Of a DNA stretch of 38,744 nt, positions 1,369 to 38,513 are shown in pieces. The DNA lies in the IMG/VR virus record IMGVR_UViG_2703719354_000025; one strand, given 5' to 3'. Positions within the stretch are counted from its first letter, which is position 1, and every line of letters starts with the position of its first letter. The position numbers and the translations under genes were made by a program. The stretch comes from a virus (Duplodnaviria; Heunggongvirae; Uroviricota; Caudoviricetes). The notes below the pieces were generated by a model. The model was not told where the DNA came from, searched no databases, and saw only the letters and a list, made by a program, of their open reading frames with translations.

Positions 1369-1444
1369 GCCGATATAGCTCAGTTGGTAGAGCAGCGCAT
1401 TCGTAATGCGAAGGTCGTAGGTTCGACTCCTATTATCGGCACCA
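1369..1444 (+). tRNA. thrW: tRNA-Thr (anticodon CGT)
   Basis: 76-nt sequence GCCGATATAGCTCAGTTGGTAGAGCAGCGCATTCGTAATGCGAAGGTCGTAGGTTCGACTCCTATTATCGGCACCA with acceptor stem, D-loop, anticodon loop CATTCGTAATG (anticodon CGU), T-arm GGTTCGACTCC and 3' ACCA. Confidence 0.95.
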
Positions 1445-1446
1445 TT
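1399..1446. repeat. attL core: 48-bp direct repeat covering the 3' part of thrW
   Basis: ATTCGTAATGCGAAGGTCGTAGGTTCGACTCCTATTATCGGCACCATT is identical at 1399-1446 and 38466-38513; flanking bases differ (c/a before, t/a after). Confidence 0.9.
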
Positions 1447-1458
1447 TAAATCAATAAG

Positions 1459-2622
1459 TTACACATCATTAGTACCTTCCTTATTTTTTGACTGGGACAA
1501 ATTTGGGACCGATGGGTTCAGGATCGAGTCTATTTGCCGTGCGTGTTCGGTAAGGTGATTAGGTGCAAGGTGAGCATATCGACGAACCATTTCGATAGAC
1601 TCCCAGCCTCCCATTTCCTGTAACACTGACAACGGGACTCCGGCTTGAACCAGCCAACTTGCCCAGGTGTGTCTCAAGTCGTGAAATCTGAAATCATCAA
1701 TATCAGCCCGTCTCAGCGCCGCTTTCCAGGCTGTGTTTGCGTCATACCGCATCTTCCTTACTGTTGGCGCTTTCGTTCCGTCTGGTTTGGTACAGCTTTC
1801 CTTGTACACAAATACCCAACGGTGATGATTCCCGATTTGTTTTTTCAATACGCGACATGCAGTATCATTCAGCGCAACGCCAATTGCGCGGTTTGATTTA
1901 CTCTCTTCCGGGTTTATCCATGCCACCCGGCGCTGCATATCTATTTGTTGCCATTCAAGGTTGATGATGTTCGAGCGCCTTAAACCTGTTGCCAGTGCAA
2001 ATTCAACAACAGACTTTAATGGCTCCGGACATTCATCAATCAGCCTTTGTGCTTCATGGGGCTCCAGCCAGCGGATCCGTTTATTCTTTGGTTGAGGCAC
2101 TTTAATAATTGGTGCCTTATCCAGCATTTTCCATTCACGCTCTGCGGCTCTTAGTAGGGCCTTTATAAATGAAAGATGCGTAGCCTTCGTTGCAACGGAC
2201 GCTGGTTTTGGCGTGTATTCTGGAACAGGTTTCCCTTTTTTTCTGCATGCTTCTGCCCTGAGTCTCCAGTTTTCCTCATGACGCCGGTTCGTCATTTTCT
2301 GCATTGCTGAATAAATTTTTGATTCAGTAATGTCTCTTAGTTGCATTCCTGCGAAATGTTGAAGCCAGAATCCGATCCGGCTTTTGTCATCGTCCAGTGA
2401 TTTTTTATGTGCTTTCTCTTCAAGCCACCTGACACACGCTTCCTCGAACGTTATATCAGGTATTTCACCAAGTTTGCTGACCCGCCATGCTTCAGCCTTT
2501 AGCTTGTCATGGAGTTCTGTCGCCTGCCTTTTGTCCTTTGTTCCAAGAGACTGTTTAAATCTTTTACCGTTCGGCAATGTGAAACTGGCGTACCATATTT
2601 CACCTCTGCGGAAGAGTGACAT
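1459..2622 (-). CDS. int: tyrosine recombinase / phage integrase (387 aa)
   Basis: Translation recognised from memory as very close to the DLP12-type integrase IntD ([52 protein letters not shown]... C-terminal [17 protein letters not shown]...RRYAHLAP catalytic region). 3' end lies 13 bp from the attL core. Confidence 0.95.
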
Positions 2623-2849
2623 TTTCTTTCCTCTGTTATGCCATCACCCGCGCTCACCTGGACAGTATGCAGCGGAGACTGAAGAGCCGCAATGCAGGCT
2701 TGTCGTGTTGTGAGGTAAGGAGATTTATTCTTAGTGGGATCTTTGCGTGTTGCCTGAAGACGCCCTGTGCGTATCCAGTTAATGGCAGTCGGTCTGGATA
2801 TCTTGAGAAAATGACAGGCCTCATCGAGTGTGAGGCTGTATGGCTCCAT
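2499..2849 (-). CDS. xis: putative excisionase (AlpA/Xis-like HTH), overlaps int 5' end
   Basis: Internal ATG at 2849 gives [37 protein letters not shown]..., a typical Xis/AlpA DNA-binding N-terminus. Its start overlaps the TAA of the upstream gene (TAATG). The ORF runs 124 nt into int in another frame, so the true 3' end is uncertain. Confidence 0.6.
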
Positions 2850-3154
2850 TATTTCACCTCTTGCTGTGACATTGTTGAAAAATGGATACCAGCTCGTTGC
2901 TGCCAGACGATCCAACCGAGAGTCATATCCCATGCCATGTATTCGTTATCGCCGTTTTTTGCTCTCCGACGATCTACTAAGTCACCGAAACGCTTTTCCA
3001 TGAATAATTCATAAGCTTCGCGTTCATCTGGTTCTACTTCCAGAGATAGGAGTGCGATTTCATAAGCACGGCGCTCAATATCGTCTCGCACGTCAAGGCT
3101 GTTGATACGCTCTTTAATTTCTTTAATCAGTTCTTTGTCGGTAAAAGTGGTCAT
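2849..3154 (-). CDS. hypothetical phage protein (101 aa)
   Basis: ORF in the leftward early operon, translationally coupled to xis; no family recognised. Confidence 0.5.
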   Translation of the reverse strand: MTTFTDKELIKEIKERINSLDVRDDIERRAYEIALLSLEVEPDEREAYELFMEKRFGDLVDRRRAKNGDNEYMAWDMTLGWIVWQQRAGIHFSTMSQQEVK

Positions 3155-3516
3155 TATGCTCCAGCCTCCGGTGCTTTTGGCATTACTGCCCAGTGAGTGA
3201 TATTGACGTTTTCAAGGTCCCCGACCTGAAATGTCCACTGCCATTCTCCGGTTTCTTTTTGTCCCCAGGTGTACCAGAGAGAACGCCAGCCAATTAGCCA
3301 GCCTTCTCCGTTAGCATCGAATAACAAAACACTTTCATTTGCTGGTGGCAGTTCAGTTGACACTGGTATTACTTTGTTTTCCTGTGCTGCACATTTAGCT
3401 TCAAGCGCATCGAATTTACGCACCAGGTATTCAGCATCTGTTTCATTTACTTTCAGATCTCGCGGTACACATCTCCCACGAAGAAACCCTTCCATTTCGA
3501 AAACATTCATGCGCAT
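3154..3516 (-). CDS. hypothetical phage protein, Trp-rich C-terminus (DUF551-like?)
   Basis: ORF in the leftward operon; the second ATG at 3510 overlaps the stop of the upstream HD gene (ATGA coupling), so the start may be 3510. Confidence 0.55.
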   Translation of the reverse strand: MRMNVFEMEGFLRGRCVPRDLKVNETDAEYLVRKFDALEAKCAAQENKVIPVSTELPPANESVLLFDANGEGWLIGWRSLWYTWGQKETGEWQWTFQVGDLENVNITHWAVMPKAPEAGA

Positions 3517-4043
3517 TTGCGTAACTCCGATAACTCGTTAAAGCGTTCCATAAACATCCCGTAGGCATGGCCCGGTGCCAGTGGAATCACGTTGAACATC
3601 TCTGTTGCCGGGATACCTTCCAGTACAGGCCAGAAAGAGCCATCATCAAGCCCGAGATCGCGGCGTTCGGTTGCCAGCATGATGAGATCGGCATATTTCA
3701 CGGGCGTACTCATAACTGGGGGTAACCCGTATTTCTCACGGATTACGGCGTCTATTTTTTCTTCCATTTGTTTATAGTCAGGAAGAAGGCGTTTCAGTGG
3801 TGCGGGAATGTCCTGGCAATACGCTTCTGTTGCATCATGCATTAACGCTTCAAAAGCAAATTCCTGCGGCACCAGCTGGCTGCAAAGAACCGCATGTTGG
3901 GCGACGCTGTAGAAGTGCGAAAGATGACCGGCAAAGCGACAGATATTTGAAAGGGAAACCGCGATATCGTTAATATCGATGTCGTCTTTATTTATCCTGT
4001 CATAATAAAAATGCTTCCCGGAAAAAGTTTTAATAAATGACAT
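3507..4043 (-). CDS. HD-domain phosphohydrolase (YfbR-like 5'-deoxynucleotidase family)
   Basis: Translation contains an H...HD metal-binding pattern (FAGHLSH, MHDATEAYCQDIPAPLK). Start set at the ATG at 4043 (MSFIKTF...), which has a GGAG 8 nt upstream; the ORF-track start at 4070 is GTG. Confidence 0.7.
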   Translation of the reverse strand: MSFIKTFSGKHFYYDRINKDDIDINDIAVSLSNICRFAGHLSHFYSVAQHAVLCSQLVPQEFAFEALMHDATEAYCQDIPAPLKRLLPDYKQMEEKIDAVIREKYGLPPVMSTPVKYADLIMLATERRDLGLDDGSFWPVLEGIPATEMFNVIPLAPGHAYGMFMERFNELSELRKCA

Positions 4044-37212: not shown

Positions 37213-37240
37213 AGGCTCCCAATGGGAGCCTTATTTTTTG
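37213..37240 (+). terminator. rho-independent terminator hairpin
   Basis: AAGGCTCCC-AATG-GGAGCCTT followed by ATTTTTTGA on the plus strand; lies about 40 bp beyond the stop of the minus-strand small gene but has no T-tract in that orientation. Confidence 0.6.
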
Positions 37241-37277
37241 ATAGGGATGATGAATATTATCCGAGGCTTACTGGCTT

Positions 37278-37430
37278 TACACCTTTCTTCGGCCCGACCA
37301 TATCCATGTCTTTTTCCTTCTGACCAACTTTGGCAAGTTTGTTGCCGTCGATGGAAGCCCAGAAGTCGAGAGAGCGTCTTGCACTAGCCATAGCTTTATC
37401 AGAAGTGATTTTTTTATGTTGTTTGATCAT
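37278..37430 (-). CDS. small basic protein (50 aa), unknown
   Basis: ATG at 37430 with AGAGG RBS 8 nt upstream; translation MIKQHKKITSDKAMASARRSLDFWASIDGNKLAKVGQRKKTWIWSGRRKV; 90 bp downstream of the 190-aa gene on the same strand. Confidence 0.4.
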
Positions 37431-37520
37431 GGTTAACCTCTTTGGCTATAGACTTTACGGATAATTTTATAACAAATGCGTTCATTAAACAAACAGCCCA
37501 TCGACTGCTGATTGAGATTG

Positions 37521-38093
37521 TCATTCTTCAACTGGGTCAATGCCATTCACTTTCCGTCGTATGGTGTCGAGGATGTCGTGCACATCTGCAGACATCTTAC
37601 TGTGGTCATGCCATACTTGGGCAAATCCGTAGCTCCTGTAACGCGGTTGTGCATCTTCAGTAGGATCTTGAATATAAACGTCGTCAAGCTCCGCGATCTG
37701 GCAGAAGGTAGTCGCGTAAATAAGTGCGATGATCAACACATTGCCTGTTAGGTCGGTATCCTCATCTGAAATGAAGTTTTCTAACATGCAAATTGAGAAT
37801 TGCTCACGGCGCCAGTCGTATTTACAAATGATAACCGCATGAAGCTGTTCGGGCTCATCACGGTCGATCAGCTTTAACGTTATATCCAGTATTCCATCTA
37901 CAGCGTCACCGCGATAGGTCTGCATCGCCCATCGCCAGTCCAAGTGGCTTTGTAAACTTGCATCTTCAAGCTGGCGTCTCTCTTCATCGCTCAAAACGCC
38001 TACAGAGATATTAGTCCATCCAAGTGATTCAATAGCTTTTTGTGTTGTTGCTAGACATTGATCATGTATTTGCTGAGTAGATAGGAAGCTCAC
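37521..38093 (-). CDS. unknown 190-aa acidic protein, attR-proximal cargo gene
   Basis: GTG start at 38093 with AAGGA upstream; no in-frame ATG near the start; no family recognised. Confidence 0.55.
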   Translation of the reverse strand: MSFLSTQQIHDQCLATTQKAIESLGWTNISVGVLSDEERRQLEDASLQSHLDWRWAMQTYRGDAVDGILDITLKLIDRDEPEQLHAVIICKYDWRREQFSICMLENFISDEDTDLTGNVLIIALIYATTFCQIAELDDVYIQDPTEDAQPRYRSYGFAQVWHDHSKMSADVHDILDTIRRKVNGIDPVEE

Positions 38094-38465
38094 TTCATGT
38101 CATCCTTTATCTTTTGTCCCACAGCAATTATATCGTTCAAGTGTGAAAGTAGGCGAGTTATTCTGACCTACGCCCCTCGCTATACGTGGTTTTAGAGGGC
38201 TGACATGACTGTTCCCAGCTGATTGCCACACGGCATTGTTCGCAAGATTTATGTCGACTCAATTATGAACGTCTGCTGATCGCTCATAACAGGCATTCAC
38301 TACATTTATCTTCATTGGCTATGCAAGTCGTAATACAAGTTGGGACAAAACTGAGACACATAAGGCCTCACAATGGCTTGCAAGGCTTTACATGTTTTGA
38401 TGTGATGGGACGTGTGAGCGCAGTGTTGATGGGGTAATGCTTTGAATTAGAAACGGATTCTTATA

Positions 38466-38513
38466 ATTCGTAATGCGAAGGTCGTAGGTTCGACTCCTAT
38501 TATCGGCACCATT
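38466..38513. repeat. attR core: 48-bp direct repeat (partial 3' copy of thrW)
   Basis: Identical to 1399-1446; it carries only the 3' two-thirds of the tRNA, so it is not a functional tRNA gene. Confidence 0.9.

Follow-up and report, generated by a model that had tools for sequence, protein, structure and literature searches.

The IMG/VR virus record IMGVR_UViG_2703719354_000025 (Duplodnaviria; Heunggongvirae; Uroviricota; Caudoviricetes) is a stretch of DNA of 38,744 nucleotides (nt), referred to here in its full length as the window. It opens with the chromosomal gene proA (1-1254) and the tRNA gene thrW, and carries a prophage at 1399-38513, inserted at the 3' end of thrW. As judged from its sequence, this element is very probably a temperate, lambdoid-regulated, cos-packaging myovirus of the group formed by Shigella phages SfI, SfII, SfIV and SfV, with SfIV as its nearest relative. 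Three cargo modules, for which expression in the lysogen is predicted, occupy the two variable slots of this group. These are a Kiwa defence system between the antiterminator gene Q and the holin gene, and an AT3 membrane acyltransferase and a GNAT-fold cassette between the tail fibre gene and the right attachment (att) site.

The prophage is bounded by a two-copy direct repeat (1399-1462 and 38466-38529), detected with a repeat finder and by direct reading, which is 95% identical over 64 nt and exact over its leading 48 nt. The leading 46 nt of the exact repeat match at every position the published att core ATTCGTAATGCGAAGGTCGTAGGTTCGACTCCTATTATCGGCACCA, which is common to SfI, SfII, SfIV, SfV and SfX (PMC3636060; PMC3851460). 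No third copy of the core was found in the window with up to three mismatches allowed, and shuffled sequence gave no matches. The tRNA-Thr(CGT) encoded by thrW was the sole tRNA returned by ARAGORN; proA lies upstream of it as in K-12, and the spacer between the two genes is identical to that of K-12. A synthetic excised junction of 346 nt, made by fusing window 1200-1446 to 38514-38612, was searched against 5,426 complete E. coli genomes from RefSeq. It is contiguous and 100% identical in many of them, and 1,642 cover at least 80% of it. Because the fused flanks recreate an intact junction in other genomes, 1399-38513 is a precise insertion into a commonly empty proA-thrW site of an E. coli-type chromosome. 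An earlier sequence-only reading of this DNA, which had placed a prophage between 48-bp repeats at a tRNA-Thr gene adjoining proA, described the site correctly.

After excision the genome would measure 37,067 bp, the range of the phage group being 37.1-41.5 kb. Circularisation recreates the attP of SfIV, in which window 38341-38465 and the sequence from 1447 onwards adjoin. Compared with either SfIV or SfV, homology of the cargo-side att arm begins at base 38341, exactly where the cargo stops and hence at the inner boundary of the attR-proximal slot; with the prophage of E. coli 90-9281 it sets in some 40 nt sooner, at 38302. Beyond the right att site, matches to the empty-site genomes and to other E. 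coli genomes end at 38612. The remainder, ~38610-38744, resembles an insertion sequence (IS) inverted repeat and the start of an orfA (MTKNTRFSPEVRQRAVRMVLESQGEYD...), which we take to be of the IS3 family; this putative IS lies about 100 bp past attR.

A megablast search of 50,697 deposited phage records gave as its top matches Shigella phages SfIV, SfV, SfII and SfI and E. coli phages vB_EcoM-720R4 and 689R6. With SfIV (NC_022749 / KC814930), the window is collinear by pairwise BLAST over ~30.2 of 37.1 kb (~81%) at 88-99% identity. The aligned window segments are 1399-5823 (99.1%), 6320-9812 (97.8%), 10453-11153, 11401-13280 (87.8%), 14921-17170 (91.9%), 17171-34458 (96.8%) and 38341-38529 (97.4%), of which the structural block 17171-34458 runs unbroken for 17.3 kb against SfIV 1-17303. 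The integrase (Int) and excisionase (Xis) adjoin attP and are, over their full length, 98.5-99.5% and 98.6-100% identical to those of SfIV and SfV. SfIV has been induced by ultraviolet light and plaque-purified (PMC3851460), and vB_EcoM-720R4 is a deposited phage genome.

On these alignments the element can be assigned to the thrW phage lineage of SfI, SfII, SfIV and SfV, though not to its gtr-type seroconverters. GtrA, GtrB, GtrIV and GtrV gave no tblastn match in the window, and their slot holds the AT3 acyltransferase and the GNAT cassette. The layout of the SfV-type thrW group had been recognised earlier, and is borne out by Int/Xis at 98.5-100% identity, cI/Cro at 99.6-100% and 17.3 kb of structural genes at 96.8% to SfIV. 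The choice of SfV as the model phage holds for family membership but not for closest relationship. The nearest chassis is that of SfIV/vB_EcoM-720R4 rather than SfV, because the SfV head and tape-measure genes (portal, protease, capsid and tape measure) are a different allele set, at 24-28% identity. Other features named in that reading also fit. The integrase, described as DLP12-like, is 73% identical to DLP12 IntD over 382 residues, and Pfam domains and full-length orthologues agree with an HK97-type head and a Mu-type contractile tail. The three cargo islands, described there as atypical of gtr-bearing phages, are present as low-GC (guanine-cytosine) or foreign modules, and gtrABC is absent.

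Intactness was assessed by comparing each annotated coding sequence (CDS) of SfIV, SfV and 720R4 with the window by tblastn. A full-length counterpart, mostly at 97-100% identity, exists for each SfIV or 720R4 gene that serves integration, immunity, replication, lysis, packaging or the building of head and tail. No split gene was found with any of these CDSs, no IS element lies within the prophage, all intervals of which were assigned, and no deletion of an essential gene was detected relative to functional relatives. The earlier statement that the essential modules appear intact, for which alignment to SfV-group phages had been named as the test, agrees with alignments that run from first to last residue, and cos, iterons, operators and attP arm are all present. 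The cos site is the single match in the window to the 10-nt cohesive end mapped experimentally in SfI, TGCCCGCCCC (PMC3636060). By every sequence test applied, the prophage appears complete.

One candidate frameshift in a small early gene had also been noted. It is most likely the segment 5438-5748, upstream of yfdP, to which PGAP gives the label 'frameshifted hypothetical protein' in E. coli prophages that are nearly identical. The flagged segment stands, but a real defect does not: 5438-5748 is not a lesion of the window copy, because its alignment with the plaque-forming phages SfV and SfIV shows no indel and because it overlaps a match to the STnc100 small RNA (sRNA) family. That match (5559-5781) falls within a stretch annotated in SfIV as the N-terminal half of a 226-aa (amino acid) open reading frame (ORF), and this region may encode an sRNA rather than protein. 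The features of the window are collected in the table.

Table. Features of the window, in order of position, with the evidence for each.
Feature	Position	Strand	Evidence and remarks
thrW, tRNA-Thr(CGT)	1369-1444	+	integration target, regenerated by attL; ARAGORN; Rfam tRNA 71.8 bits; identical to K-12 thrW
attL core	1399-1446		48-bp exact repeat, begins within tRNA-Thr(CGT)
Tyrosine integrase	1459-2622	-	387/387 aa, 99.5% to SfIV Int; PF00589; 73% to DLP12 IntD
Excisionase (HTH_17)	2499-2942	-	147/147 aa, 100% to SfIV Xis; Pfam
yfdT, yfdS, yfdR (5'-deoxynucleotidase), yfdQ, yfdP	2849-5423	-	full length, 97-100% to SfIV gp30-34 and SfV orf28-32; PGAP names
STnc100-family sRNA match	5559-5781	-	Rfam RF02076, 48.5 bits vs gathering 47; upstream of yfdP
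Two small ORFs	5862-6053, 6015-6221	+, -	phrog_2605 and phrog_15476, full length; segment 5862-6221 not in SfIV
cI repressor, S24 autocleavage domain	6466-7140	-	224/224 aa, 100% to SfIV, 99.6% to SfV; PF00717
Divergent promoter/operator region (putative)	7141-7230		GTAC palindromes ~7155-7175, 7198-7234; inverted repeat found
Cro	7231-7431	+	66/66 aa, 100% to SfIV and SfV Cro
ymfL (cII-like), ymfM	7475-8367	+	full length, 95-97% to SfIV gp39-40
O-like replication initiator	8377-9318	+	313/313 aa, 99.4% to SfIV, 99.7% to 720R4
nin-like region: yfdN/PerC, Dam methyltransferase, LexA-like small protein, RusA, KilA-N, DUF968/YdfU	9315-12997	+	full length
Q antiterminator (120-aa type)	13000-13362	+	PF06530, E 1.5e-45; 55% to SfIV Q-like
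KwaB (Kiwa effector, DUF4868)	13384-14268	-	PADLOC PDLC00225, E 2.3e-150, 1-294 of 294 aa
KwaA (Kiwa membrane sensor)	14274-14795	-	PADLOC PDLC00216, E 1.9e-83, full length; hydrophobic N-terminal half
Conserved pre-holin segment	14887-15125	+	terminator-like hairpin 14953-14974; putative late promoter/qut/tR' region of 120-aa Q type
Lysis cassette: holin, endolysin (GH24), Rz, embedded Rz1/LysC	15126-16468	+	full length, 91-99% to SfIV; PGAP names
HNH endonuclease, terminase-associated	16761-17111	+	116/116 aa, 93-94% to SfIV/SfV; PF01844
cos TGCCCGCCCC	17178-17187	+	single match, between HNH and small terminase
Terminase small (P27 family) and large subunits	17238-19462	+	164/164 and 577/577 aa, 98-99.7%; Pfam
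YmfR/W-like protein, portal, S78 prohead protease, major capsid	19474-22745	+	98-99.8% to SfIV/720R4; PF04860, PF04586, PF05065
Head-tail joining: 66-aa protein, connector, head closure, tail completion, tail terminator, DUF2635	22794-24944	+	full length, 94-99% to 720R4
Contractile tail: sheath, tube, assembly chaperone, tape measure	24928-29092	+	full length, 99-100% to SfIV/720R4; Pfam
Mu-type baseplate: DNA circulation protein (N), hub (P), gp45, gp46, gp47/J, gp48	29117-34162	+	full length, 97-100%
Tail fibre, 366 aa	34166-35266	+	aa 1-99 SfV-group anchor; aa 100-366 different, glycine-rich tip
59-aa ORF	35266-35445	+	phrog_14370, full length; overlaps fibre stop codon
Hairpin terminator	35427-35458		14-bp stem then T run; between convergent fibre and acyltransferase units
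AT3 (Acyl_transf_3) membrane acyltransferase, standalone, 339 aa	35457-36476	-	GC 29.8%; PF01757, E 2.2e-30
S24-peptidase pseudogene fragment and vestigial att arm, donor-module end	36666-36937	+	PGAP in KSC1031, 300709, CP52E; phrog_10470
Cassette of 1.25 kb: GNAT-fold protein (37521-38093), 57-aa ORF (37257-37430)	37049-38299	-	
attP arm, cargo side (P-arm equivalent)	38341-38465		97% to SfIV, 95% to SfV
attR core	38466-38513		exact second copy of 48-bp repeat

Several features of the shared chassis deserve a brief description. The stretch homologous to the region between cI and cro is marked as a putative operator region in the SfV record, and the O-like gene contains origin iterons, with at least four units at 15-bp spacing (8679-8742) and a related copy at 8802. 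Proteins of the nin-like region are 96-99.6% identical to their 720R4 or SfV counterparts, the Dam methyltransferase matching PF05869. Domains PF07157, PF06890, PF07409, PF04865 and PF10076 and GpP domains were recovered in the baseplate genes. Rz1/LysC matches except for a divergent C-terminus, and its ORF has the length of the full-length PGAP LysC of E. coli 90-9281. The spacer that follows, between Rz1 and HNH (16438-16759), occurs in neither SfV nor 720R4 and holds a strong minus-strand hairpin terminator (16644-16615). Its equivalent in strain TUM14664 contains a gene for a GrlR-family regulator, and because of this the spacer can be regarded as a third, minor variable slot. The gene names yfdN-T, ymfL/M/Q/R and stfP derive from the K-12 relics e14 and CPS-53.

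The first major slot lies between Q and the holin gene. Here kwaA stands directly upstream of kwaB on the same strand, separated by a 5-nt gap, in an island with a GC content of 34.5%. KwaB scores 31.7 bits with Pfam PF16162 (cutoff 26.3), and RefSeq/PGAP names identical copies of the two proteins 'KwaB-like' and 'KwaA family'. A Kyte-Doolittle scan of KwaA, a protein expected to have four transmembrane helices, gave two strong hydrophobic segments (5-28 and 32-56), and weaker stretches can be made out by eye at ~77-90 and ~99-116. The NCBIfam equivalog for KwaA reached 46 bits, with a cutoff of 100, and neither KwaA nor KwaB had a sequence match among Protein Data Bank (PDB) chains, so that the characterised Kiwa structures were not retrieved. 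Because of these two results, we read this copy as a divergent Kiwa subtype whose activity is predicted and assumed. In promoter scans, no convincing promoter was found for kwaA. In characterised systems, KwaA responds to the disturbance of the membrane as DNA enters, and KwaB then binds incoming DNA and blocks replication and late transcription; approximately 16% of dereplicated Kiwa loci are on prophages (PMC11785009).

In related elements this slot has other contents: SfV and 720R4 have a DNA methyltransferase gene there, E. coli 90-9281 has a metallophosphoesterase gene of 3.1 kb, and SfIV has an IS together with two ORFs on the reverse strand. The plaque-forming SfIV thus also carries reverse-strand cargo at this position. 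At least 80% of the Kiwa island is covered in 33 of the 5,426 E. coli genomes. The block from Q through Kiwa to holin is 99.7-100% DNA-identical in 30 listed E. coli genomes, where it stands at clearly different chromosomal coordinates, which suggests recent horizontal spread.

Upstream of Kiwa, the Q gene is part of a stretch that is 98% DNA-identical to E. coli 90-9281, up to window 13337. Downstream of it, a pre-holin segment of 210-240 bp is common to SfIV and E. coli 90-9281, which have the 120-aa Q, but not to SfV and 720R4, which have a Q of 250 aa. Because this segment co-varies with Q type in the four relatives, we place the putative late promoter and Q-utilisation site within it, on the holin side of Kiwa.

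In the second major slot, the imported module of fibre tip and AT3 gene covers 34459-36937 and so begins within the tail fibre gene. The fibre is 98% identical to that of SfIV across aa 1-99 only, and has matches to PF21722 and, over aa 1-365, to the tail family phrog_863. A second allele in E. coli CP52E keeps an intact 366-aa frame and is 88% identical, the differences being clustered at the tip. PGAP labels the fibre 'StfP, incomplete' in KSC1031 and CP52E; this was set aside as an annotation artefact, the 1,101-nt frame being continuous in both alleles. In the IMG/VR database, the tip has 15 close loci, 82-100% identical, all at or near a contig end. Judged by their identifiers, these look like prophages of isolate genomes, and they consequently provide no virome evidence for the tip. 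The 59-aa ORF that overlaps the fibre stop codon accompanies the tip wherever it was seen, and is annotated in KSC1031, 300709 and CP52E. It could be a small fibre-associated protein or a chaperone-like stand-in for the tail fibre assembly protein Tfa.

Convergent with the fibre unit, and sharing its terminator hairpin, is the gene for the AT3 acyltransferase, which occupies the position of gtrABC and has a sigma-70-like promoter site of its own (36547-36519). PF01757 covers aa 15-330 of the protein, which has approximately 9-10 hydrophobic segments and, at 339 aa, no room for an SGNH domain. It matches phrog_3333 'O-acetyltransferase' (E 7.5e-51) and also a PHROG 'O-antigen acetylase' family, and the exact protein occurs on 499 contigs. 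The Oac protein of phage Sf6 has the conserved motifs FFxISG, RIxPxL, NGxLWT and SYGxY/FPVQQ, which were shown to be critical (PMC3467182). Read by eye rather than from an alignment with Oac, the motifs FFFILSG, RIVPMHL, NGVSWS and SSFIFYLIHQP of the window protein bear a loose, inexact likeness to these.

The AT3 protein is probably a functional analogue of the gtr and oac seroconversion genes. By analogy, its most likely role would be to O-acetylate the O-antigen or another surface glycan, thereby masking a receptor. There is a lesser but appreciable chance that its substrate is a different glycan of the envelope (capsule, colanic acid, peptidoglycan or enterobacterial common antigen), or that it serves another role, in which case the phage would not be seroconverting. 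The substrates of AT3 proteins are many (PMC9833829); this one has no curated NCBIfam equivalog match, and its best relative among the 50,697 phage genomes, and nearest characterised phage protein, is the O-acetyltransferase of TL-2011b, at just 35% identity. However, the gene lies in the attP-proximal slot, which is the home of O-antigen modification genes in all SfV-group, Sf6 and P22-like phages (PMC3851460; PMC3636060). Its product is standalone, with hydrophobic segments similar in number to the 10 transmembrane helices of Oac, it matches PHROG families named for O-antigen modification, and it travels with the tail-fibre tip. A surface-modifying role of the seroconverting type remains the preferred reading.

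Past AT3, the imported material ends at a module boundary at 36937. Just before it lies an S24/LexA-family fragment (36666-36877, plus strand), which lacks its N-terminus, has a UmuD-like PHROG match and is annotated as frameshifted in relatives. It is followed by 49 nt (36875-36923) that are 76% identical to the start of the attP arm at 38341-38389. In strain CP52E, the block of fibre tip, 59-aa ORF, AT3 and S24 fragment closes a related prophage, which has the same tail genes and is located beside ybhB-bioA. In strain 300709, the same fibre-tip/AT3 block belongs to a degraded prophage of another type and has an integrase fragment as its neighbour. Because the same arm ends the AT3 block in both strains, the inner copy can be understood as a relic imported with the AT3 module. 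The resemblance of the inner arm to the attP-arm start, and its coincidence with the module boundary, could also be read as two tandem integrative elements at thrW, a prophage to ~36.9 kb and a small island at ~36.9-38.5 kb. This is extremely improbable, and was rejected: the att core has two copies and no third, even allowing up to three mismatches, the inner arm has no adjoining thrW-like core, and the segment 36.9-38.3 kb encodes the GNAT pair only and no integrase. The presence of the arm at the end of the AT3 block in CP52E and 300709 also argues for a single prophage with an imported module.

Between this boundary and the attP arm is the GNAT cassette, which is 97% DNA-identical to a Klebsiella chromosome and was probably acquired recently from a Klebsiella-like chromosome. 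Its 190-aa protein has a GNAT fold. The acetyl-CoA loop reads D-L-T-G-N-V, the canonical form being Q/R-x-x-G-x-G/A, so that the central Gly alone is kept; a motif-B-like RYRSYGF is conserved. The 190-aa, 57-aa and 65-aa ORFs had no Pfam, NCBIfam or PADLOC match, and the 190-aa protein had no sequence match among PDB chains. A GNAT-type toxin-antitoxin pair of the TacT/TacA or AtaT/AtaR kind was considered and rejected on gene order and the lack of a DUF1778/RHH (ribbon-helix-helix) partner. The GNAT gene and the 57-aa ORF downstream of it are paired without exception in Klebsiella, Pantoea, Kluyvera, Serratia and Enterobacter, in five differing chromosomal or mobile-element contexts, where the neighbours are AraC regulators, umuC and Mn-catalase, pspF, the melibiose locus, and a mobile element with RdgC and Dam. 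The pair behaves as a small mobile cassette.

A bolder view, which we consider rather improbable, joins two proposals. The GNAT gene and 57-aa ORF would together be a new mobile module, for instance a toxin-antitoxin or an anti-phage pair, and the fibre tip and AT3 would move as a matched receptor-binding and receptor-masking unit. If so, the GNAT pair has been caught shortly after capture by a phage, and a single recombination that brings in fibre tip and AT3 gives both a new host range and matching superinfection exclusion.

The surveyed genomes place these modules in a mosaic background. At least 80% of window 1-24000, which comprises proA and the left 22.6 kb of the prophage, is held by 155 of the 5,426. 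The same Q-Kiwa block is found inside a thrW prophage in TUM14664 and A27, and KSC1031 and E41 have an identical 4-kb right end. In KSC1031 (NZ_CP019560.1; 2.03 Mb and 4.28 Mb), the window right end (100% over 4 kb) is in the thrW prophage, and the Q-Kiwa block (100%) is in another prophage 2.2 Mb away. Recombination between co-resident relatives of this kind could generate the combination seen in the window. Elsewhere, the attR-proximal slot carries DUF262 proteins, AAA ATPases, type II restriction-modification, KAP NTPase, an autotransporter or DUF6056.

A number of results weigh against a functional prophage of this group with the cargo described. The whole element is in no complete E. coli genome of the survey; the best matches reach 94% coverage for the left 24 kb and 87% for the right 18.7 kb, each in another strain, and KSC1031 is the sole genome to reach the latter value. 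The cargo combination is unseen in any deposited phage genome (n=50,697), and hence has never been seen as a virion, and neither the Kiwa island nor the fibre tip has a match in that set. No Tfa gene follows the fibre in the comparison with the CDSs of SfIV, SfV and 720R4, all three of which have tfa. Promoter scans for the late promoter gave weak consensus matches only, none convincing. The sub-cutoff KwaA score, the lack of PDB matches for the Kiwa proteins and the distance of AT3 from its best phage relative belong in the same list.

The swapped fibre tip without Tfa is the only real doubt concerning intactness. We consider it unlikely, on balance, that the prophage looks complete but is defective (cryptic), perhaps excising without giving infectious virions. 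Possible causes would be a recombinant fibre without its assembly chaperone, or a Kiwa insertion that parts Q from its cognate late promoter, and the case turns on the lack of a Tfa gene and on a late promoter that is putative. The absence of a Tfa homologue from the window, a fibre tip unknown among deposited phages, and homology to the Q-downstream region of 90-9281 that ends 25 nt before the Q stop codon all point that way. In addition, thrW relatives are often decayed, in ways not seen in the window. In the prophage of 90-9281, an IS3 element interrupts the early-left region, Rz is truncated and the fibre/tfa region is broken, and in that of KSC1031 the tape-measure gene is frameshifted.

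Against this, all other genes are full length and 97-100% identical to those of functional phages. The match of the fibre to a PHROG tail family extends over the entire protein, and the two fibre alleles, with 12% protein difference and changes at the tip, both keep intact 366-aa frames, a pattern expected under selection. The co-variation of the pre-holin segment with Q type in four relatives, and the near-identity of the Q-Kiwa-holin block in 30 E. coli genomes at differing coordinates, likewise speak against a defective prophage. We therefore retain the reading of a complete temperate phage and, by analogy with its relatives, infer that it is inducible.

The life cycle can be outlined by homology with SfIV and SfV. 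Int would recombine attP with the 46-48-bp core in thrW. In the lysogen, the S24-type cI repressor would silence the prophage via the palindromic cI-cro operators until cleaved in the SOS response. The O-like initiator would then fire at the iterons inside its own gene, and the 120-aa Q would turn on the late operon. HNH and terminase are expected to cut cos and fill an HK97-type head, which would join a Mu-type contractile tail, and holin, endolysin and spanin would release the virions. During lysogeny, KwaA and KwaB would be predicted to block replication and late transcription of incoming phages, and AT3 might alter serotype and block adsorption, following the same logic as gtr and oac.

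These observations indicate that the serotype-converting chassis of Shigella phages SfIV and SfV circulates in E. coli with its two moron slots, Q-lysis and fibre-attP, re-loaded, so that they now carry a defence system and a different surface-modifying enzyme. If inducible, the phage could carry Kiwa immunity, and with it a trait that is likely to be O-antigen acetylation, from strain to strain, and it would share immunity with both SfIV and SfV. Kiwa systems on prophages, O-antigen modifiers close to att and defence hotspots at tRNA sites are already documented (PMC11785009, PMC10121019, PMC3851460). The element is an ordinary addition to a known phage group that leaves current understanding unchanged, and is useful for prophage annotation and for studies of cargo turnover.

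Among known systems, the Kiwa module resembles that of E. coli O55:H7 RM12579 in its two-gene kwaA-kwaB operon, the hydrophobic membrane domain of KwaA and the DUF4868/KwaB domain of KwaB. AT3 resembles Oac of Sf6 and OacB, OacC and OacD of S. flexneri as a standalone, att-adjacent AT3 membrane protein of approximately 330-340 aa with its own promoter, although no close sequence relationship to them was detected.

The chassis has counterparts in several phages. vB_EcoM-720R4 (ON470603) and vB_EcoM-689R6 (ON470584) share structural, lysis, replication and nin proteins at 97-99.8%. They differ in having another immunity region (cI 35% identical), a Q of 250 aa, a methyltransferase in the Q-holin slot and another fibre tip with tfa genes, and no thrW-type int/att region of theirs aligned. 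SfV (NC_003444) shares the att site, Int/Xis, early-left genes, cI/Cro, Dam, RusA and YdfU, as well as sheath, tube, baseplate, fibre anchor and the cos/terminase arrangement. In contrast, its portal, protease, capsid, tail chaperone and tape measure are other alleles (24-44% or no match), its replication genes are different, its Q is of the 250-aa type, and its cargo is gtrABV and a DNA methyltransferase.

SfIV comes closest. It differs in having gtrA, gtrB and gtrIV, IS elements and tfa genes, all absent from the window, and an IS and two-ORF moron where the window has Kiwa. It lacks Dam and RusA, which the window shares with SfV and 720R4; Q and KilA-N are 55% and 70% identical, and the fibre tip is swapped past residue 99. 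The two nevertheless have in common the att core and thrW site, an O-type replication gene, the 120-aa Q family, the lysis genes, the HNH/cos/terminase arrangement, the HK97-type head alleles and the tape-measure allele. Int is 99.5% identical and Xis 100%, and cI and Cro are 100% identical; therefore, the prophage and SfIV should be homoimmune.

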